Positions 1-47,785 of a stretch of DNA of 47,870 nucleotides are shown here, piece after piece. Position numbers and translations under genes: made by a program. Numbering within the stretch: position 1 is the first letter of the stretch; each line of letters begins with the position of its first letter. Source of the DNA: a bacterium (GTDB lineage Bacteria; Desulfobacterota; Anaeroferrophillalia; Anaeroferrophillales; Tharpellaceae); assembly GCA_029932385.1 (NCBI GenBank), contig JAOZQE010000004.1, positions 1 to 47,870 on the forward strand. The letters are read 5' to 3'. The notes below the pieces were generated by a model. That model worked only from the letters and a program-made list of their open reading frames with translations, was not told the origin of the DNA and made no database searches.

Positions 1-1249
1 CCTCCCCATAAGTAAAACAACTGTCATAGACACGATGTTCCGAGAAAACCTGCACGACGGCCGTTGTCCCGGTACCGGTAATGGTCAAGTCGTACGGATT
101 TTCATCACTATCATTATTGGCTATTGCGATAGTCGCCGTCTTGGCTCCTGTTGATGTGGGCGAGAATCTGATCGTAAATGTAGTGCTGCTACTTCCGGTC
201 ACGGGTGATATGGGTTGAGTTTGCACGCTGAATTGACTGGAGTCAGCTCCTGTTATTGCAATTATTGGAGTACCTGAAAGCGCAAGATCCGCAGTTCCAG
301 TATTTTCAATGGTAAAGATTAAGTCGGTATCAGTGCCGGTTGCTTGACTTCCAAAGTCATGGCTGCCTCCGTCAGCTATGTTTATCGTATTTTGCTTGAG
401 GTTGATTTCCGGAGCCAGAGTGGTAAATGTTACATTCGTGCCATATGAGGTTCCGGCGCTGTTGGTTGCATAGGCCCGGACATTGTAAAGAGTGCCTGGG
501 GTTAACCCAGTCATAGAGGAAGTAAAAGATCCGGTGGCACTAACCGCACCGTCAGTAGTTTTGAAATCATTAATATCATCGACGGTTGGATCCGTAGATG
601 TACTCCAACATATCCCATGTTGAGTTGGGTTGGAAGATCCGAGCGCCGTGATGTTGCCGTTACCAGTGGCCGTCGTGCTAGCGACAGCAGTTGCAGCCTG
701 AGTCGCGACGGATGGGGCTACAGCTAGGATCTCCACAGTTGCCGATCTCAGTGCTAAGCCGTAAAGTATATGCCAGTCGTCCCAAAAGGAATTATAACCA
801 TTTGATGCTAGTGGGTTGTAATATTGCCCATTAAAAAACCCGGGAGAAGTTTCCCAGCGGTTCACTGACCAATATAAATCGGATACAAGGTTCAAGAATC
901 CCACCCCTCCCGAAGTTCTCAAACCTACTGTGTATTCTGCCTCAGATTCAGCCAGTCGCCAGTCACTTGTAAATGCGACTGTGACTCCTTCATCAAAAGT
1001 TAAATTCAGGGGGTTGACTGTGTTGAGATTGGCCGCCCAAATAACTTGTGTTGGTTGGGTGGCCTCAATAGCTGTATAGTCAAGCCAGATCACCGACGCT
1101 TCTTCATCCCACAAAAGAGGGTATGTCGGCCCATCCGGTCCGTCTACATCAAATTGAGCTGTGCCGATTGGTACCAAGGCTGCTGAGCCTGTTACAGTAA
1201 AAACAAATACGAGAGCCATCACGACTAAAATTGAGGTTAACTTTTTCAT
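1..1249 (-). CDS. Secreted multi-domain cell-surface (adhesin-like) protein, 5' part only; the gene continues beyond the window start
   Basis: Not in the ORF track because it runs off the edge. My hand translation of the minus strand from ATG at 1249 is open to position 1. GGGAGA RBS sits 6 nt upstream. N-terminus MKKLTSILVVMALVFVFTVTGSAA is a signal peptide. It is followed by a DUF1566-like segment (SDWRLAESE...YWSVN), an FN3-like module (GICWSTSTDPTVDD...LTPGTLYNVRAYATNSAGTSYG) and a choice-of-anchor-D-like module (FTIENTGTADLALSG...FSPTSTGAKTATIAIANNDSDENPYDLTITGTG). Confidence 0.8.
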   Translation of the reverse strand, partial: MKKLTSILVVMALVFVFTVTGSAALVPIGTAQFDVDGPDGPTYPLLWDEEASVIWLDYTAIEATQPTQVIWAANLNTVNPLNLTFDEGVTVAFTSDWRLAESEAEYTVGLRTSGGVGFLNLVSDLYWSVNRWETSPGFFNGQYYNPLASNGYNSFWDDWHILYGLALRSATVEILAVAPSVATQAATAVASTTATGNGNITALGSSNPTQHGICWSTSTDPTVDDINDFKTTDGAVSATGSFTSSMTGLTPGTLYNVRAYATNSAGTSYGTNVTFTTLAPEINLKQNTINIADGGSHDFGSQATGTDTDLIFTIENTGTADLALSGTPIIAITGADSSQFSVQTQPISPVTGSSSTTFTIRFSPTSTGAKTATIAIANNDSDENPYDLTITGTGTTAVVQVFSEHRVYDSCFTYGE

Positions 1250-1291: not shown

Positions 1292-1344
1292 AAAAAAGAC
1301 AGTCAAGCTGCTCTTCAATAAAGAGGCAACCCGGCTGTCTTTTA
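1292..1344 (-). terminator. Intrinsic terminator acting as the expression platform of the GEMM-I riboswitch
   Basis: AAAAGACAGCCGGGUUGCCUCUU pairs almost continuously with AAGAGCAGCUUGACUGUCUUUU around a UAUUG loop, and the stem runs into a U6 tract (1297-1292). The 5' arm is the 3' half of the aptamer, so the two folds are mutually exclusive. Confidence 0.65.
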
Positions 1345-1405
1345 GATTTTGGAGACAAGACCCGTGGCTTTCCGACCCCGTCTTTCGGCGGGTGAGGCTT
1401 TTTCA
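1325..1405 (-). promoter_or_regulatory. c-di-GMP-I (GEMM-I) class cyclic-dinucleotide riboswitch aptamer
   Basis: Minus-strand RNA reads AAAAAGCCUCACCCGCC-GAAA-GACGGGGUCGGAAAGCCACGGGUCUUGUCUCCAAAAUCUAAAAGACAGCCGGGUUGCC. It has a GAAA-capped P1 hairpin, a GGAAAGCC junction, a second hairpin UUGUCU/AGACAG with a CUAAA receptor-like loop, and a 3' AGCCGGGUUGCC tail. This matches the remembered GEMM-I consensus and Vc2 layout. Confidence 0.7.
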
Positions 1406-1621
1406 GCAAGTATTTCTATTGCGACATCGCAACATACCTTAAGCACAAACCATAATTAAAGGCAATACCTATTTTGCGATTTGCACCTAAAGAATAAATC
1501 ACAAGATAAGTGTGATATTCGTCAAAGATATCCACTGGCAATCTAAACTTTACTGACATTTTGCAAACTTGAGTTTCATCGTAAATACTTTAGGTCTGCC
1601 GGGTTGGAGAAGGTTGGTTCA

Positions 1622-29416: not shown

Positions 29417-29507
29417 GGAGAGATGGCCGAGAGGTCGAAGGCGGTAGACTCGAAATCTATTGTGGGCTTTGCGCTCACCCGGGGTTCGAATCCCCGTCTC
29501 TCCGCCA
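29417..29507 (+). tRNA. tRNA-Ser (anticodon CGA), CCA encoded
   Basis: Hand-folded cloverleaf: acceptor GGAGAGA/TCTCTCC, D stem GCC/GGC, anticodon stem GTAGA/TCTAT with loop CT-CGA-AA, a long variable arm (class II), T arm CGGGG-TTCGAAT-CCCCG, discriminator G, CCA. Confidence 0.9.
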
Positions 29508-42756: not shown

Positions 42757-42824
42757 GGTTGAATTTCTAGACAATGAACCATTTGTGATGTTGTCCACCA
42801 TCTGAATTATATTTTAAGATACAA

Positions 42825-42863
42825 AATAAAAGGGCCGTGCGGTTAAGCACGGCCCTTTTATTT
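42825..42863. terminator. Bidirectional rho-independent terminator between convergent genes
   Basis: AAAATAAAAGGGCCGTGC-GGTTAA-GCACGGCCCTTTTATTT: an A-run before and a T-run after a GC-rich 10-bp stem. Confidence 0.8.
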
Positions 42864-42886: not shown

Positions 42887-43816
42887 TTATTTGTACCAGT
42901 TGTGGTCGTATTTTTCGACCAGATCTTCGATCCAGGAGTGAGAGTAGAGAACATTACCCATGAGGCACTTGATGCTGCGATAGTATGCCTGCAATTCGGT
43001 GCCCAGGCTACCGGCATCAACATCGCCACCATCCATCAGGGTTTTGGTCAGATTTTCAACGTCAATAATCTTACCCTGGCATAAGGCCATCATTTCGCTA
43101 TCGTAAGCATCAACGATTGAAGAGTAAATGCCGAGATACATCAGCATGGCCTGGTAGCCACGGTTTAAATAAGGGCGCAATTCCGTCGGGGTTCCGTTGG
43201 AGATATTGGAAAGACCGCAGGTTGATTTAGCGCCGGGAGCAAAGTCAGGGATCAAGGGCAGAAACTCCTGGAAGGAGGCAACCTGGCCGGGATCAACACA
43301 GATCGGCAGAACGATCGGATCGATAAACATACGTTCGGCCGGAATATCATATTCCAGGGCTTTACCGTAAATTTCGGCGGCACACATCCCGCGTTCATTG
43401 ACATCCCGAGGAATTCCTTCCTCACTCAACGTCAGAGCAACAAAGTTGCAGCCATATTTCTTGACCAGAGGCATACGATCATCCAAGCTCGCAGGTTGGG
43501 CTGAGATGGAGTTAACGATACATCTTTCAGGGGTTTTGGAAGCTTTAAGGCCGGCTTCAATAGCCACGGTATTGGTGCTGTCGAGGGCCAAAGGCAAATC
43601 GGAAACCTCTTCAATAGTTTTGACCAGCCAGGCCATCATCTCGTCACCGCCCTTACGAGCTGGTCCGAGGTTTAAGTCCTGGATGTCGCCGCCGGCTTCT
43701 TGCTGTTCAATTGCCATCTTCTGAATCGGTTTGGGATCACGTTCCTTGATCGCCGGTCCGATGGTTTTGGACATGATGTTAATACTTTCAGGTAATGTAA
43801 GACATGATAATGCCAT
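42887..43816 (-). CDS. acsE: Methyltetrahydrofolate:corrinoid/iron-sulfur protein Co-methyltransferase (MeTr)
   Basis: Pterin-binding motifs AIKERDPKPIQ...QEAGGDIQDLNLGPA, LDSTNTVAIEAGLK and CGLSNISNG, matching my recollection of Moorella AcsE. ATG at 43816 follows GGAGG; the track ORF has a 55-codon extension overlapping acsC. Confidence 0.8.
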   Translation of the reverse strand: MALSCLTLPESINIMSKTIGPAIKERDPKPIQKMAIEQQEAGGDIQDLNLGPARKGGDEMMAWLVKTIEEVSDLPLALDSTNTVAIEAGLKASKTPERCIVNSISAQPASLDDRMPLVKKYGCNFVALTLSEEGIPRDVNERGMCAAEIYGKALEYDIPAERMFIDPIVLPICVDPGQVASFQEFLPLIPDFAPGAKSTCGLSNISNGTPTELRPYLNRGYQAMLMYLGIYSSIVDAYDSEMMALCQGKIIDVENLTKTLMDGGDVDAGSLGTELQAYYRSIKCLMGNVLYSHSWIEDLVEKYDHNWYK

Positions 43817-43917
43817 ATTGTCCTCCGTAAAACTATGTTTGGTTGAATTGAAATGGTAAAAAAAGTGGCGTGAGAAGATCTCTCTTCCCACGTCAAATTT
43901 ACTTAAACAGTTACCTC

Positions 43918-45249
43918 TTACTGGCTTTTCAAGAAGGCCGCAATGTCGGAGGCTTCGCGGGTGCCGATAACAACTTCCCACTCAGTTCCCAACTCTTCCT
44001 GGAATTCGCCGGAGATCTGGGCAACGTAACCCGGAATGATGATCTTGTTATGACTGATCTTTTCTTTCATGCCGCTCTTTTTGACGAAAGGTGCCATGGC
44101 ATCAGCAACAAATTTACCGGCTGACCAGGCAGTCAGAACCGACATCCCTTCAACGTCCATGATCAGCAGCCAGGTCGGTACGCGACTGGCTTCAATCTCA
44201 GCAGCAACGATAAAGTAGGTCAGAGCAAAGTTGGTGGTGATGATAACCGGAGAGTCGGGACCCGGTTTGTTGATTTCGTAGATCCCTTCGTCCATAAGCA
44301 TCGGCCGCTGCGGATCGGTGTAGATGTTGAGGCGCTGTACCAGAATCGGCAACATGCGCTCTTTATCCACATCACTCATGACGATGATGCCGGCATACTT
44401 GGAAATTGCCATTGTTGCCAGCATCGCTTCCTTATACGGATCATCGGTCATGTCGCAGATAACTTCGATAGTCGGGTAACCAAGATCACGGTTTTTGGCT
44501 TTTAAAGCCGCCCGGCGAACCTGATTTTCATTGTAGAACATCGATTTCAGGTCAGTGGCACCAGTATCAAGGACGATATCTTTGACGCCGGCGTCAGCAA
44601 TTTTGCTGGTGAAGTTAGAAACATCTTCAACCGATGCGCCTTTAGCAACAACGGAGGCGCCGTTGGCTTTGGCAATTTCAGCGACTTTTGCAAAATTGTC
44701 AGCTGTAGCGGCATAGAGCAGAGCCCCTTTGCCGTTAGCAGCTTTGGCACCGGCTTCGAGAGCATCCAAGTTGTCGCTCATCAAAATCAGGCCTTTTTCG
44801 GTGGCGCCCAAAGCTTTGTTGACTAATGCTTCAAACTTGCCGGCATCGCCACTGCTGTTACGGATAGCCAGAAGATCGGCCGAGAGGGTCAGGCCAACAC
44901 GATCAAATGTAACCGTATTAAGGTTATTGATCTTGGCATCGACTTCGGCATCGTCCATTTCGTCGGTGACGAGACAGGCGATCGCAGTCGGGTTCATAAA
45001 GGTTTTTTCATGACGGTAGAAGACGAGTTCTTCACCAACTTTTTTGTCACCGATTTTGACGCCGCGGATCGGGGGTGCTGATGCTTCGCTTAAAATAGCT
45101 TTAGCTTCGTCCGAGACGTAGGGGCATTTATCGAGTTCTGCTTTACCACCGGCCAGAGCCATGGCGAAAGCCAGACAGGTCGGGCTACCACACTCTTTAC
45201 AGTTGGTCTTGGGGAGCAACTTAAAGATTTGGATTCCAGTGAGTCCCAT
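43918..45249 (-). CDS. acsC: Corrinoid iron-sulfur protein large subunit (CFeSP gamma)
   Basis: N-terminal [4Fe-4S] motif NCKECGSPTCLAFAMALAGGKAELDKCPYV, and conserved LYTDPQRP and ITTNFALTYF segments; 443 aa. Confidence 0.9.
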   Translation of the reverse strand: MGLTGIQIFKLLPKTNCKECGSPTCLAFAMALAGGKAELDKCPYVSDEAKAILSEASAPPIRGVKIGDKKVGEELVFYRHEKTFMNPTAIACLVTDEMDDAEVDAKINNLNTVTFDRVGLTLSADLLAIRNSSGDAGKFEALVNKALGATEKGLILMSDNLDALEAGAKAANGKGALLYAATADNFAKVAEIAKANGASVVAKGASVEDVSNFTSKIADAGVKDIVLDTGATDLKSMFYNENQVRRAALKAKNRDLGYPTIEVICDMTDDPYKEAMLATMAISKYAGIIVMSDVDKERMLPILVQRLNIYTDPQRPMLMDEGIYEINKPGPDSPVIITTNFALTYFIVAAEIEASRVPTWLLIMDVEGMSVLTAWSAGKFVADAMAPFVKKSGMKEKISHNKIIIPGYVAQISGEFQEELGTEWEVVIGTREASDIAAFLKSQ

Positions 45250-45323
45250 AGTAAGACTTCTCCTTTTGTGTCAGTCCCCAACATCGTGTTTCGCCACGTA
45301 CTTTAATTGTTGAGGAACACATA

Positions 45324-45460
45324 CCAATCAGGTTTTCTGGCTTCCGGATCATCTGGCTGACTCTTCCTTCCCAGGTTTCCCCAGTGGTTATATTAAGTCA
45401 GTATCCCCGGTTACAGCGGCGGGCCCGCTTCCGATTTGCACGGAATTCCCTGATTTAGCA
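45324..45460 (-). promoter_or_regulatory. Cobalamin (B12) riboswitch aptamer in the acsB-acsC intergenic region
   Basis: Minus-strand RNA: AAUCAGGGAAUUCCGUGCAAAUCGGAAGCGGGCCCGCCGCUGUAACCGGGGA...CCACUGGGGAAACCUGGGAAGG...GUCAGCCAGAUGAUCCGGAAGCCAGAAAACCUGAUU. It contains the conserved GGGAA / GUGnAAAUC / CCCGCCnCUGUAA core, the CCACUG...GGGAAGG element and a B12-box-like GCCAGAAAACCUG. AAUCAG and CUGAUU close the outer helix. Confidence 0.8.
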
Positions 45461-45495
45461 GTGTTCAGTTAAAAAAATATTTTCCGGCTTTATAA

Positions 45496-45537
45496 AATAT
45501 TCAGCTGGCTGGCTTGCGCGCCTTACAGCTGAATATT
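45496..45537 (-). terminator. Hairpin (12-bp stem AATATTCAGCTG/CAGCTGAATATT) just after the acsB stop; possible terminator or attenuator
   Basis: Read directly. On the minus strand the stem is followed by UUUAUAAAG, a U-rich but imperfect tract. Confidence 0.45.
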
Positions 45538-45562
45538 TTACTTTGCCATAACTAAAATTAAA

Positions 45563-47785
45563 TTACATCATTTCCATCAGTTGTTCCATCTCCAGGCAGG
45601 GATGGCCGGCTTCGGTCAAAAAGGCCATGATGGTCTCTTCGTCGGTGCCGTTTTCTTCGGTGGCGATCATGTCATAAAGATTCGGTACGCCAACTTCGGC
45701 GCCGCGGGCATCAATCATATCTTTGCTTGCTTCTTTCAGAACTTTAGGCAGCCAGCAGAGGCGTTTGATGCCGCCTTCAGCCGAGATGAACTTCTTACTG
45801 CCGATATAGAATTTGGAGATGCCGACAAAACCCGGAGTCTGCAAACCACCACCGACGGAGCCGGCCAGGGTCGAGAAGCCCATACCACATGGGGTTTCAC
45901 CTGAGTAGTCACGGTCAACAACCATTATGCCGTTGGCAGCAAAGAGACAAGCGGCGATCGCTTCAAAACAACCACAAGAGGTCATCGGATCGACCAGGAT
46001 TGAGTAAGCGGCGAAAGATTCGAAAGCATTACCCGAAGCCGGAATAACAAATTCGTCAACCCCTTTCCATTTACCCAGGCGTTCATCCATGATGTCACCT
46101 TTGGCGATCGGCTGGTTCGGGCCGTGCTCGTTAATCTCGTAAGAAGCCCGGCAATCAAGCCAGTTGTAGGCACCACAGAGGCCCGGACGTTCCGGAGTAA
46201 CAACACAGACATGGGTCGGAGCAAATGACTGACAGAGTGAACATGAGTAGTAAGTCTCAGTCGTTTCATCGTTCATGTCGGCAAGACGGTTGTCACGCTC
46301 AGTCCAGGTCTTACGACAAATCTCAAGATGTTTGTTAACTTCATCAGGATCAGTGAAGATAGTGACCTGAACTTTGTCAACAATAGCGCCAAACTCGTTG
46401 TGCATTTTAGCATGCAGGATGGTGCCGAAATGTTCAAATGTGAAGCCGGCTTCAACCGCTTTTTTGGAGATCCGCATCCAGACGATATCACGCTGACCGA
46501 TATGGAGTATGCCTTCAGCGCCATTCAAGAGATGATGACACTGGCGCTCCAGGATAGGCTCAAAATCTTCCTGGAATTTACGACCGGCCAACTCAATCCA
46601 GATACCGATCGGCAACAGGCCGCCCTCTTCAACATCTTTGATATTGGGACCGACAACTGTGAACTTACCATCTTCAACTTCATCCAGAGGTTTGGAGTAG
46701 GCAAATTCAAAACCAAAAGATTTCGGACCGCCAAGTTCAACGTGCATGGCATCTTTTTTGATCCGTTCACCTTCGAATGCAGGACCATAAGACATCGGAA
46801 TGTCGATTTTGGCGATCGTGATTTTAAGACCACGAACTTCGATACCCTTAGTGACGATTTCAGTCTCAGGGATGTTTGTAACAACATGCTCGTAAGTACA
46901 GACACCAGTCGGCAGAACTTCAGGGAAGTCGGTATCAGCGATGGTCGGCACGCCGAAGTTGATACAACCACAAGCGGCAGCATACTGTTCGTCACAAACT
47001 GGGCCCAGCGCCAAGATGAAAGCAAATACACGATCCTGAATGTATTTAAGGACGCCTTTGAAATCGCCCGGAGTCTGACCACCAAAGGTCAGGGCGGCGC
47101 GGACGGCAAAGCCGACGGCGTGGATGGCAGCTGAATGATCAAAACCGAAAGGTACAAGACGGGTATTCCAGCCAACCTGGGTGCCGGCTTCAGCTACCTG
47201 TTTGGCAAAAGAGGTCCCATTTTCATTATTTGAGGCCATGAAGACGTAGATACTTTTTTCCTGGAGCTCTTTAGCGATTGCGGCGGCAGCAGCAGGAGAA
47301 GAGGCGGCACCAACAACGGCAGCAAAGCCGGGAGCCGAACCATCAACAAACTCAACCCCACGTTTCCGCAGGATGATATCATCGGCAGCACCTAGCCACA
47401 TTTCAGGATCAGTATCTTCCGGATCTTCTTTGCAGTCAAGGTATGGTGAGCCTTCCACATACTTAAGGGCCTCTTCCATATCAAAAGCAAAAAGAGTCGC
47501 CATGCCTGAGTCGAGGCCAGGTCCTAGATAAGGGGTCCAGCAGTTATCAATCGGAACTTCGGCAAGTAATTCACGACACTTTTCCATGACCGGTAACATA
47601 TCACCCAGAGTTTCAACTTTCATGCCGGTGACACCGTAGATAACGGGCAGATAGTAGGCGGTATTGGGTAAAGCAACTTCTTTGTCAGCACCATACTTTG
47701 CGATGGCTGCGTTAATTTTGCCTTCGACCCGGTCAACGACTACGTTGGCTCCACGGATTCCGGCACCAATTACTTGTTTAGACAT
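45563..47785 (-). CDS. acsB: Acetyl-CoA synthase (A-cluster subunit of CODH/ACS)
   Basis: A-cluster ligands in YYSCSLCQSFAPTHVCVVTPERPGLCGA and MTSCGCFE. N-terminal NTAYYLPVIYG; 740 aa. GGAGG RBS. Confidence 0.95.
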   Translation of the reverse strand: MSKQVIGAGIRGANVVVDRVEGKINAAIAKYGADKEVALPNTAYYLPVIYGVTGMKVETLGDMLPVMEKCRELLAEVPIDNCWTPYLGPGLDSGMATLFAFDMEEALKYVEGSPYLDCKEDPEDTDPEMWLGAADDIILRKRGVEFVDGSAPGFAAVVGAASSPAAAAAIAKELQEKSIYVFMASNNENGTSFAKQVAEAGTQVGWNTRLVPFGFDHSAAIHAVGFAVRAALTFGGQTPGDFKGVLKYIQDRVFAFILALGPVCDEQYAAACGCINFGVPTIADTDFPEVLPTGVCTYEHVVTNIPETEIVTKGIEVRGLKITIAKIDIPMSYGPAFEGERIKKDAMHVELGGPKSFGFEFAYSKPLDEVEDGKFTVVGPNIKDVEEGGLLPIGIWIELAGRKFQEDFEPILERQCHHLLNGAEGILHIGQRDIVWMRISKKAVEAGFTFEHFGTILHAKMHNEFGAIVDKVQVTIFTDPDEVNKHLEICRKTWTERDNRLADMNDETTETYYSCSLCQSFAPTHVCVVTPERPGLCGAYNWLDCRASYEINEHGPNQPIAKGDIMDERLGKWKGVDEFVIPASGNAFESFAAYSILVDPMTSCGCFEAIAACLFAANGIMVVDRDYSGETPCGMGFSTLAGSVGGGLQTPGFVGISKFYIGSKKFISAEGGIKRLCWLPKVLKEASKDMIDARGAEVGVPNLYDMIATEENGTDEETIMAFLTEAGHPCLEMEQLMEMM

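Follow-up and report, generated by a model that had tools for sequence, protein, structure and literature searches.

In one uncultured clade of Desulfobacterota, the spacer between acsB and acsC of the CODH/ACS operon holds what is, on comparative sequence evidence, a genuine class-I (AdoCbl-type) cobalamin riboswitch under selection, and the same comparisons show it to be suited to the control of acsC without a terminator. The cell seems in this way to tune a B12-using protein, not its B12 supply, to the level of B12. Our tentative account, to which we give a chance slightly short of even, is that this lineage acquired a class-I riboswitch between acsB and acsC and that the element is translational and activating and uncouples AcsC from acsD and acsB.

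The window, i.e., the whole stretch of 47,870 nucleotides that was analyzed (contig JAOZQE010000004.1), carries all the features described below on its minus strand, and the operon order in the lineage is RACo-cooC-acsD-acsB-acsC-acsE. The gene acsB (45563-47785) encodes the bifunctional CODH/ACS alpha/beta subunit of 740 aa (NCBIfam NF040764, 1002 bits vs. a cut-off of 800) and is the cistron upstream of the riboswitch, outside its control. The first cistron 3′ of the riboswitch is acsC (43918-45249), which codes for the large gamma subunit of CFeSP (443 aa; NCBIfam NF003195, 566.6 bits vs. a cut-off of 306), a protein that binds a corrinoid and a [4Fe-4S] cluster. The spacer of 313 nt that separates them (45250-45562) is real and devoid of any credible ORF, as the first-pass annotation had stated. 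The third gene (42887-43816) codes for an acsE-like methyltetrahydrofolate:corrinoid methyltransferase of 309 aa, a MeTr/acsE-like pterin-binding protein whose NCBIfam scores lie under the curated cut-offs (NF005719, 212.7 bits vs. 259) and whose orthologues in relatives measure 308-313 aa and bear PF00809; a start at the GTG ORF at 43981 was replaced by the ATG at 43816. A strong intrinsic terminator found by the scan, a 17-bp stem followed by a T-run (42824-42863), marks the end of the operon.

Rfam cmscan placed RF00174 (Cobalamin) at 45310-45492 of the minus strand with 85.4 bits against a gathering threshold of 31.5 (E = 9e-20), the match covering the full model (positions 1-189 of 189), and our own covariance model R1 gave 166 bits in the window at 45312-45469. 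Together they define an aptamer with a P6 extension and an extended P1 (45315-45466), which confirms the riboswitch originally proposed between acsB and acsC. The core motifs quoted in support of that proposal, GGGAAUUCCGUGCAAAUCGGAAGCGGGCCCGCCGCUGUAA, CCACUGG...CUGGGAAGG, the B12 box AGCCAGAAAACCUG (45329-45342) and AAUCAG/CUGAUU, are all present on the minus strand; the B12 box, the GGGAA junction and GCCACUG...GGGAAGG occur in the window and are invariant or nearly so across 14 clade sequences. AAUCAG/CUGAUU had been thought to close the outer helix, the extent of which needs correction: P1 is longer (GAACAC-UGCUAAA-UCAG ... CUG-AUUGGUA-GUGUUC, ~14 bp), and its outermost part pairs GAACAC (45461-45466) with GUGUUC (45315-45320), with compensatory changes. 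RNAalifold closes P5 with a loop of 5 nt, GCCCG (L5; 45420-45424), which would be the partner within the aptamer in the proposed kissing loop, and finds both sides changed in 21 of 55 pairs. When P1 and P13 were scored as an explicit structure, 86% of the cells were paired, vs. 28-47% when the structure was slid, and nine pairs had changed on both sides, vs. 4.4 in shuffles (0/500).

A metagenome scan gave one close relative only, and the clade was gathered via exact-protein look-ups. The occurrence of the element upstream of acsC orthologues in relatives, a check suggested with the first-pass annotation, proved complete within the clade: the element is kept in 19 of 19 loci, the AcsC proteins of which are 78-95% identical, with RF00174 in the acsB-acsC spacer of all close relatives (78-100 bits) and scores of 114-177 bits in the 19 loci for our own model. 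The latter had no match in 158 outgroup acsC loci, and an Rfam scan of 59 outgroup loci, 20 of them with long spacers, had none either, which speaks against independent acquisitions elsewhere. In the nearest outgroup locus (L170) the gene order is the same and the acsB-acsC spacer is merely 60 nt long. Identity to the window ranges from 58 to 85% for the aptamer, vs. 41-67% for the four-fold degenerate sites of acsC; these sites are near saturation at the divergence of the clade and the aptamer core is invariant, so that by this measure the aptamer is slower-evolving than the synonymous sites of the gene that it precedes. The 16 distinct leader sequences, from at least 15 assemblies, all keep L5, L13, and the B12 box.

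The expression platform is dominated by a hairpin, P13 (45275-45316; MFE and RNAalifold), that adjoins P1 without a linker. Its 5′ arm, UCCUCAACA (45308-45316), is pyrimidine-rich and anti-SD-like, and its 3′ arm, UGUUGGGGA (45275-45283), is purine-rich. The base of the hairpin, CCUC/GGGG, is invariant in 14/14 sequences, one compensatory pair is found, and subclade 2 preserves the helix with a different upper stem. The leader stem first drawn here, GUGUUCCUCAACA/UGUUGGGGACUGACAC, was right in one half: UCCUCAAC(A)/(U)GUUGGGGA is the conserved base of P13, whereas GUGU:ACAC was rejected, as GUGUUC pairs with GAACAC (in L163, ACAU:AUGU compensates and the downstream ACAC does not follow) and as L002 and L175, too, differ in this ACAC. 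Near the apex of P13, the candidate L13, CGUGGC (45293-45298), complements L5 with one bulge; CG-N-GG(C/U) is conserved in 14/14 clade sequences, and CG-N-GG is also found in riboswitches linked to CbiK in the same genomes. A G-to-A change in L5 tracks a C-to-U change in the loop in L161, L162, and L172, and does not in L171, which amounts to one split with one exception. An L5-L13 kissing loop is likely, the partner being assigned through sequence identity with the cobT riboswitch of A. halodurans, in which a bulged GCCCG/UGGC kiss was validated by mutagenesis (PMC10327014). The CGGGCC of the CbiK-linked comparators, an exact complement of L5, was also considered as L13; it is now read as an antiterminator strand, in agreement with the published metE model, and the conserved loop CGUGG is the better candidate.

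The strong Shine-Dalgarno (SD) sequence of acsC, AAAGGAGA (45259-45266), is invariant and lies outside P13. With the aptamer and P13 folded, it is unpaired with a mean probability of 0.50 in the window and of 0.47-0.88 across the main clade, vs. 0.00-0.01 for btuB by the same measure; in L161 it falls to 0.08, where a hairpin, AUUUCCU-GAA-AGGAGAU, follows P13 and coexists with it. Another predicted hairpin, AGUCUUA/UGGGACU (45242-45258), pairs the U and G of the AUG and likewise coexists with P13; the 7-bp form is confined to the window and its closest relative (L001), the rest of the main clade having 5-6 bp, and codons 2-3 of acsC (GGA CUC) show no third-position change in 14/14 sequences. 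Upstream, a single conserved segment complements the SD, namely UUCCUC in the 5′ arm of P13 (sister subclade: CCUCAUCUCUCUU), which can form 5 bp in the window (UUCCU:AGGAG) and 8-12 bp in subclade 2. By predicted energies, in which the terms for long-range helices are uncertain, the SD-sequestered fold beats P13 by 6.9 kcal/mol in L162, P13 is favored by 9.3 kcal/mol in the window, and in the window and 11 other members (12/14) P13 is 6-10 kcal/mol more stable than the alternative without the kiss. These values come from explicit blocking, a forced-pairing constraint being informative for subclade 2 only. For the main clade, plain thermodynamic modeling of SD accessibility, run as a free fold, with the platform alone and with the G-run blocked, showed no clean switching. 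A terminator scan of the minus strand of the spacer found none, with no terminator-like site between 45250 and 45320, and no U-tract follows P13 in the window sequence; the lack of a terminator implies translational control. The initial remark that no U-tract was obvious stands; the anti-SD character of the CCUC arm and the likely L5-L13 kiss had been overlooked. A promoter scan of the same strand, a crude one, also found none, and in most members the aptamer begins only ~25-30 nt 3′ of the acsB stop codon. The element spans ~230 nt and is self-contained.

Two further hairpins flank these structures. The one reported right after acsB does exist, at 45494-45539, adjoining the stop codon, with 14-bp arms AAAAUAUUCAGCUG / CAGCUGAAUAUUUU recognized in the sequence and its fold. 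It is part of an insertion of ~70 nt restricted to the window and L001, has no further copies within the window, was not scored as terminator-like by the scan and is possibly a 3′ stabilizer or a weak terminator of acsB. Downstream of acsC, scan and sequence reveal a terminator-like hairpin, CGUGGGAAGAGAGAUCUUCUCACG followed by CCAC and U7 (43858-43892, the hairpin itself at 43869-43892). All 13 of the clade members examined have a hairpin at this position, of -18 to -33 kcal/mol, in most cases followed by a U-run and not conserved in sequence; L170, the acsC-acsE spacer of which is 18 nt long, lacks it. Because every member bears this hairpin and acsE has an SD of its own, GGAGGA, it is doubtful that the riboswitch controls acsE or that acsE is co-regulated with acsC. 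Of the joint gating of acsC and acsE originally put forward, the part that survives is a position suited to the control of acsC separately from acsB.

In the activating account that we tentatively prefer, binding of a corrinoid would organize the aptamer, L5 (GCCCG) would kiss the apical loop of P13 (CGUGGC) and thereby stabilize P13. The 5′ arm of P13, able to complement the acsC SD, would then be locked as a pyrimidine arm onto a purine-rich decoy arm, leaving the SD free, and AcsC apoprotein would be made preferentially when free cobamide is present; where the kiss is absent, the pyrimidine arm would compete for the SD. Such a device would act on translation initiation, not on intrinsic termination, and would uncouple AcsC synthesis from the acsD and acsB of the same transcript. 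According to a published rule, a corrinoid riboswitch is of the activating kind if P13 cannot form together with the OFF structure (PMC10327014). The ON-type reading of the first-pass annotation is plausible, and that paper supplies a precedent for an inverted sign. Judged from the sequences, activation is the sign that we would assign, at slightly less than an even chance; repression is rather unlikely, and other outcomes are more unlikely still. To the complete picture, that of a natural translational ON corrinoid riboswitch, the first of its class directly controlling a corrinoid-dependent enzyme, in which the L5-L13 kiss fastens a P13 with a decoy SD and AcsC is matched to free cobamide, we grant a slightly lower chance than to activation as such.

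Several observations count against activation, and some of them favor a conventional OFF switch, in which the same functional element would lower AcsC synthesis upon corrinoid binding. Indeed, all experimentally characterized corrinoid riboswitches but one repress (PMC10327014); the SD-sequestering hairpin beside P13 in L161 completes a full btuB-type, repressing layout; and the start-codon hairpin, which in the window reaches 7 bp, coexists with P13 and is accompanied by the invariant synonymous positions of codons 2-3. The 5 bp of anti-SD pairing in the main clade and the single split with its exception in the L5-L13 covariation also weigh against activation. Repression could proceed by either of two routes. 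On the one hand, as in btuB, the kiss would lock P13, and its G-rich 3′ arm would no longer open a downstream hairpin over the RBS or start codon. On the other hand, L5 (CCC) would take the G-run of the P13 3′ arm, so that the CCUC arm could bind the SD; this capture was rejected as a general model and is retained solely as a sub-route of repression. In its favor, the UGGGG G-run is invariant, can form four pairs with L5 and sits where the CbiK-linked comparators, terminator-type OFF switches, carry CGGGCC; it nevertheless conflicts with the validated geometry between L5 and the P13 apical loop and costs 6-10 kcal/mol. The rationale would be that of BtuB, scarcity of cobamide calling for more of the essential apoprotein that captures corrinoid and plenty calling for less. 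Against repression by any route, 13 of the 14 members are without a conserved SD-sequestering helix beside P13, and the SD is predicted to be largely free when the RNA is folded. A conserved anti-sequestor of the apo state was not found: L081, L175, and the window disrupt the candidate H1 hairpin (CAGAC:GUCUG, with the SD in its loop) and show no compensating change. With a repressor, the SD of L162 would stay sequestered whatever the conditions. Moreover, to shut down a central enzyme that depends on corrinoid while this cofactor abounds would constitute a positive-feedback drain on a scarce cofactor. We consider repression rather improbable on this balance, and continue with activation as the preferred, tentative reading.

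The energetics invite two explanations in which the SD is not switched at all. As P13 is favored without the kiss in the window and 11 other members, the published rule would predict constitutive expression, not switching, a point that counts against activation as well. A duplicated riboswitch that had become a non-regulatory remnant, with P13 always formed, acsC constitutive and the aptamer kept by chance or for RNA-structural reasons, would agree with this prediction and with the published "closed P13" mutant, which is ligand-insensitive; such a remnant is very improbable, given an invariant aptamer core that evolves far more slowly than near-saturated synonymous sites, helices that covary, and the retention of L5, L13, and the B12 box across so many distinct leaders. 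Improbable, to a lesser degree, is an effect on mRNA fate and not on SD accessibility, in which compaction of the corrinoid-bound aptamer would set the stoichiometry of AcsC to AcsB/AcsD by way of Rho-dependent polarity across the untranslated 313 nt, cutting by RNase E within the AU-rich stretch that precedes P1, or a long P1 helix that shields the 5′ end of a processed acsC mRNA. P1 and P13 are indeed predicted to be too stable for switching by secondary structure alone, an AU-rich single-stranded tract lies 5′ of P1 in all members, and acsC is flanked by the riboswitch on its 5′ side and a strong hairpin on its 3′ side, to which the window adds the post-acsB hairpin, an arrangement typical of segmental control of mRNA stability. 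This explanation draws on the absence of evidence for other mechanisms, however, as neither a rut-like C-rich unstructured tract nor a defined cleavage site was identified, and a classical translational platform is indicated by the conserved L13 together with the SD-mimic arm and the anti-SD-like CCUC arm, which is invariant.

Corrinoid riboswitches are usually regarded as feedback repressors of B12 supply. A conserved member tied directly to the subunit that binds corrinoid in the acetyl-CoA pathway would carry the class beyond cofactor supply to cofactor demand and would offer a simple RNA means of matching apoprotein to cofactor in one of the most cobamide-hungry pathways known. If activation is true, the synthesis of AcsC, the main cobamide sink of the Wood-Ljungdahl pathway, would be matched to free cobamide cistron by cistron, through discoordinate, cistron-specific control within the CODH/ACS operon, and the element would provide a natural blueprint for translational corrinoid-ON devices. 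Searches of the literature combining acsC, CFeSP or Wood-Ljungdahl with the B12 riboswitch returned no report of this arrangement, nor was any found of a corrinoid-dependent enzyme under the direct control of a corrinoid riboswitch. The context is as unusual for this riboswitch class as had been proposed, being intercistronic and ahead of a corrinoid-dependent target.

One reference for the element is the btuB riboswitch of E. coli, a class-I, translational and kissing-loop-dependent member of RF00174. The acsC element likewise matches the family model over its full length and shares the class-I core (B12 box, GGGAA, CCACUG...GGGAAGG, P6 extension), the absence of a terminator and a P13 placed directly after P1, the apical loop of which complements L5 (ACGCG in L5 and CGCGU in L13 of btuB). 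It differs in being intercistronic instead of located in a 5′ leader, in the extension of P1 to ~14 bp that abut P13 without a linker, and in lacking, in 13/14 members, the dedicated SD-sequestering hairpin that btuB possesses. Its target, a corrinoid-dependent enzyme subunit, is also unlike those of the typical class-I regulon (biosynthesis, transporter, B12-independent isozyme). The one activating example among known corrinoid riboswitches, cobT of A. halodurans (Alkalihalobacillus; Procknow et al., 2023, PMC10327014), has an identical L5, GCCCG, an identical L13 core, UGGC, and a bulged kiss like the one proposed here. Its P13 has a strand in common with the structure that blocks expression, the feature by which the paper recognizes activation; in the acsC element the candidate anti-SD:SD pairing would take the place of that structure. 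In both, expression in the presence of corrinoid makes sense for the regulated gene. However, cobT is controlled at the level of transcription, P13 being an antiterminator that competes with an intrinsic terminator of a kind the acsC element lacks, and this biosynthetic gene responds best to cobinamide, whereas the acsC element precedes a cofactor-using apoprotein. Among acsC elements, L162 alone shows the energetic relation of cobT, in which the OFF structure outweighs a P13 that lacks the kiss; the window does not.

Restricting B12-dependent functions to conditions in which B12 is present has been documented as a strategy (PMC8079631). In Listeria and Enterococcus, AspocR and Rli55/EutX achieve this outcome for pdu and eut by means of terminating OFF switches on antisense or sponge RNAs, an indirect relief of repression, whereas the acsC riboswitch lies on the sense strand, directly 5′ of the B12-dependent gene. 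Moco riboswitches (Regulski et al., 2008, PMC2408646) similarly place a coenzyme sensor directly 5′ of genes for coenzyme-using enzymes, with another RNA family and ligand and a sign that was not established in that study. Related elements are the CbiK-linked riboswitches of the same genomes (L164:5471-5654, L168, L173, L174), which our covariance model, trained on acsC-linked aptamers only, detects with 103-110 bits, vs. 37 bits for E. coli btuB. They share L5 with the acsC element and a homologous P13 module, CCCCU-CGUGGAAC-AGGG; unlike it, they have their own promoter, a U8 intrinsic terminator and a P13 of only 4 bp, and they control a cobalt chelatase operon, a textbook repressing context. 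The acsC-linked riboswitch probably arose by duplication of a biosynthetic B12 riboswitch of the lineage itself, the CbiK-linked element being its likely evolutionary source.

The 313-nt spacer between acsB and acsC (45250-45562, minus strand), as delimited by the sequence and the gene calls, contains a match to the RF00174 Cobalamin family at 45310-45492 (minus strand), for which Rfam cmscan returned 85.4 bits against a gathering score of 31.5 (E = 9e-20), with all 189 model positions covered. The first-pass annotation had placed a cobalamin aptamer here, to be abandoned should RF00174 score below its threshold; the score lies well above it, and the minus strand does carry each motif cited at the time. 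The region also folds better than 100 of 100 dinucleotide shuffles (z = -4.3). Score, core motifs and covariation assign the element to RF00174, with a corrinoid as the predicted ligand.

The spacer is flanked by acsB (740 aa; 45563-47785, minus strand; NF040764, 1002 bits) and acsC (443 aa; 43918-45249, minus strand; NF003195, 567 bits). A 309-aa acsE-like pterin-binding methyltransferase follows (42887-43816, minus strand), with its ATG at 43816 behind a GGAGGA Shine-Dalgarno (SD) sequence; it reaches 212.7 bits with NF005719, under the cut-off, and is a divergent member, as the NCBIfam AcsE/MeTr cut-offs are not reached. The longest ORF for this methyltransferase, a 364-aa GTG-start reading (42887-43981, minus strand) with a 64-nt overlap into acsC, was rejected as spurious. 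The window ends just upstream of acsB; in relatives the operon reads RACo(acsV)-cooC-acsD-acsB-[spacer]-acsC-acsE, an order that puts acsD, encoding the small subunit of the corrinoid Fe-S protein (CFeSP), ahead of acsB and beyond the reach of the switch. The remaining window genes are ordinary chromosomal housekeeping genes (pyrG, rpoN, ptsI, polA, folC, lptD), and no further B12-related genes were found in the window beyond the acs operon. The window also carries a long-variable-arm tRNA of 88 nt (29417-29504, plus strand; RF00005, 58.4 bits), whose anticodon loop, CU-CGA-AA by alignment, suggests tRNA-Ser(CGA), and a c-di-GMP-I-GGC variant riboswitch (1321-1407, minus strand; RF03167, 67.4 bits, gathering score 59). 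Downstream of the latter, an ORF running past the window edge (2-1249, minus strand) encodes a repeat-rich protein with a signal peptide and ASH/HYDIN-type Ig-like domains, likely a secreted or adhesin-type target of that riboswitch.

AcsC homologues at 78-95% identity make up a tight clade, and the next ones come only at about 66%. The clade set comprises 19 loci including the window (L001, L002, L081, L161-169 and L171-176), with 16 distinct leader sequences from at least 15 assemblies that carry a Deltaproteobacteria or Thermodesulfobacteriota label. Every clade locus put through Rfam has an RF00174 match in its acsB-acsC spacer (78-100 bits), and a covariance model of our own, trained on 14 acsC-linked clade aptamers only, scored 114-177 bits in each clade locus. 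This model gave no match in 158 non-clade acsC loci (Syntrophales, Dehalococcoidia, Desulfobacterales, Spirochaetota and others); it is sensitive enough, since it detected both positive controls, the untrained CbiK-linked riboswitches (103-110 bits) and E. coli btuB (37 bits). Rfam likewise found no match in 59 outgroup loci, 20 of them picked for long acsC-upstream spacers, and the nearest outgroup, L170 (66%), has an identical acsD-acsB-acsC-acsE order with a spacer of merely 60 nt. Clade-wide presence and absence from the outgroups point to a single lineage-specific acquisition. Its source was likely a duplicated resident biosynthetic riboswitch, the CbiK-linked copy, because such riboswitches from the same genomes score high in our model. 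This second cobalamin riboswitch, absent from the window, lies just downstream of acsE in several relatives (L164:5471-5654, L165, L166, L168:5493-5677, L169, L173:5518-5651 and L174:2703-2836) at 122-124 bits, higher than the acsC-linked element; equipped with a promoter-like site of its own and a U8 intrinsic terminator, it controls a 100-aa ORF and the CbiK cobalt chelatase gene. One assembly, GCA_016936995.1, holds two riboswitch-acsC operons on separate contigs (L163 and L167, whose AcsC proteins share 88 and 85% identity with that of the window), reflecting either a true duplication or two strains in one bin.

The outer helix P1, said in the first-pass annotation to be closed by AAUCAG/CUGAUU, does contain that pairing but extends beyond it through GAACAC (45461-45466) and GUGUUC (45315-45320), reaching an unusual length of about 14 bp; the extension shows a compensatory ACAU:AUGU in L163 and a G-U pair in L175. 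P13 adjoins P1 directly, without a linker, its 5' arm UCCUCAACA at 45308-45316 and its 3' arm UGUUGGGGA at 45275-45283 (both minus strand). A sister subclade (L161, L162, L171, L172) keeps this helix and its CCUC/GGGG base despite a wholly different upper stem, CAUCUCUCUU / AGGAGAGUG. The P13 apical region carries CG-N-GG(C/U) in 14 of 14 clade sequences and in the comparators; in the window this candidate L13, CGUGGC (45293-45298, minus strand), is complementary with one bulge to L5, GCCCG (45420-45424, minus strand). L5 reads ACCCG in L161, L162 and L172, precisely those with GGU rather than GGC in the loop, a covariation that is no more than suggestive; L171 breaks the pattern, with GCCCG and GGA. 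On that metagenome contig (L171:2-1185) acsB is split into ORFs of 339 and 59 aa and AcsC has a reduced length of 423 aa, so assembly errors or decay of this copy may lie behind the sole exception. The validated kiss of A. halodurans cobT joins L5 GCCCG to L13 UGGC plus a bulge (Procknow et al., 2023, PMC10327014), sequences identical to those of the window; by analogy, it supports the L13 assignment and makes a pairing of L5 with the P13-stem G-run less likely. An A-rich linker leads from P13 to a strong, invariant SD, AAAGGAGA (45259-45266), and the acsC AUG (45247-45249; both minus strand). Promoter and terminator scans of the spacer, which report consensus matches only, found neither kind of site on its minus strand. 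Upstream, a post-acsB hairpin with 14-bp arms (45494-45539, minus strand) is a roughly 70-nt insertion common only to the window and L001, its closest relative, with no second copy in the window; in other clade members P1 starts about 25-30 nt past the acsB stop codon, which indicates that the riboswitch is truly intercistronic.

Several signs of selection make a decaying relic unlikely. Aptamer identity to the window is 58-85%, against 41-67% for four-fold degenerate positions in the neighbouring acsC in the same pairs, and RNAalifold reports 21 pairs with both sides changed. With P1 and P13 explicitly modelled in 14 sequences, pairing holds in 86% of cells but only in 28-47% once the partners are slid, and 9 pairs show both-side changes, whereas shuffles give 4.4 (none of 500 reaches 9). 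The third positions of acsC codons 2-3 (AUG GGA CUC; 45241-45249, minus strand) are invariant in 14 of 14 aligned leaders. The contrast with four-fold sites elsewhere in acsC, only 41-67% identical, suggests that selection acts at the RNA level where translation is initiated.

In published cases, corrinoid binding lets the L5-L13 kiss stabilise P13; in repressing switches the P13 3' side serves in the apo state as an anti-terminator or, in btuB, blocks the RBS hairpin, whereas in A. halodurans cobT, the one corrinoid riboswitch known to activate, it is P13 itself that excludes the terminator (PMC10327014). Calibrated on E. coli btuB, our folding pipeline left the btuB SD 0.00-0.01 unpaired, in a dedicated hairpin coexisting with P13; in acsC leaders folded with aptamer and P13 the SD is 0.47-0.88 unpaired (0.50 in the window), and only L161 has a hairpin similar to that of btuB (AUUUCCU-GAA-AGGAGAU). 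The sole conserved upstream segment able to pair with the acsC SD is the P13 5' arm, through UUCCU:AGGAG in the main clade and AUCUCUCUU:AAAGGAGAU (8-12 pairs) in the sister subclade, whose P13 3' arm (AGGAGAG) mimics an SD. P13 and SD sequestration are therefore predicted to be mutually exclusive, by analogy the published criterion for activation, and the strict invariance of CCUC and GGGG, whereas P1 covaries freely, fits a strand under two pairing constraints.

For this uncultured lineage, we infer ligand and sign of regulation from sequence and predicted energies, and we tentatively read the riboswitch as activating acsC, a reading that falls slightly short of an even chance. The predicted energies argue against activation: in 12 of 14 members P13 is favoured over the alternative by 6-10 kcal/mol (9.3 in the window), and L162 alone shows the expected energetics, its SD-sequestered fold being favoured by 6.9 kcal/mol. 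A 7-bp hairpin pairing the AUG in the window and L001 (45242-45258), together with the invariant synonymous sites of codons 2-3, also counts against activation, as does the family prior, cobT being the only known activating case (PMC10327014). That prior and the AUG-pairing hairpin favour repression, which on the predicted folds we consider rather unlikely, though a serious competitor; control of mRNA fate without SD switching is improbable, and an inert remnant, at odds with an aptamer better conserved than the acsC four-fold sites and with covarying helices, is very improbable. The reach of the switch seems limited. The first-pass annotation had both acsC and acsE apparently gated; the riboswitch does lie directly ahead of acsC, but acsE has its own SD and is set apart by a post-acsC hairpin (43858-43892, minus strand; stem 43869-43892, then CCAC and U7, from scan and sequence). 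All 13 clade members examined have a strong hairpin (-18 to -33 kcal/mol) after the acsC stop codon, usually followed by a U-run, its position kept and its sequence not; the acsC-acsE spacer of L170 is just 18 nt, without a hairpin. This hairpin is probably a leaky terminator or a stabiliser setting AcsC:AcsE stoichiometry. With the riboswitch 5' and the hairpin 3', acsC is thus bracketed, and the regulated unit is most safely taken as acsC alone, the corrinoid-binding subunit.

Literature searches returned no account of a corrinoid riboswitch ahead of acsC, CFeSP or Wood-Ljungdahl genes. Whereas the known corrinoid-riboswitch regulon supplies the cofactor, the acsC target uses it, and the element differs further in being intercistronic. 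Conceptually close are the activating cobT riboswitch, with its transcriptional mechanism and biosynthetic target (PMC10327014), the AspocR and Rli55 systems, which are indirect (PMC8079631), and the Moco riboswitches found ahead of Moco-using enzymes (PMC2408646).
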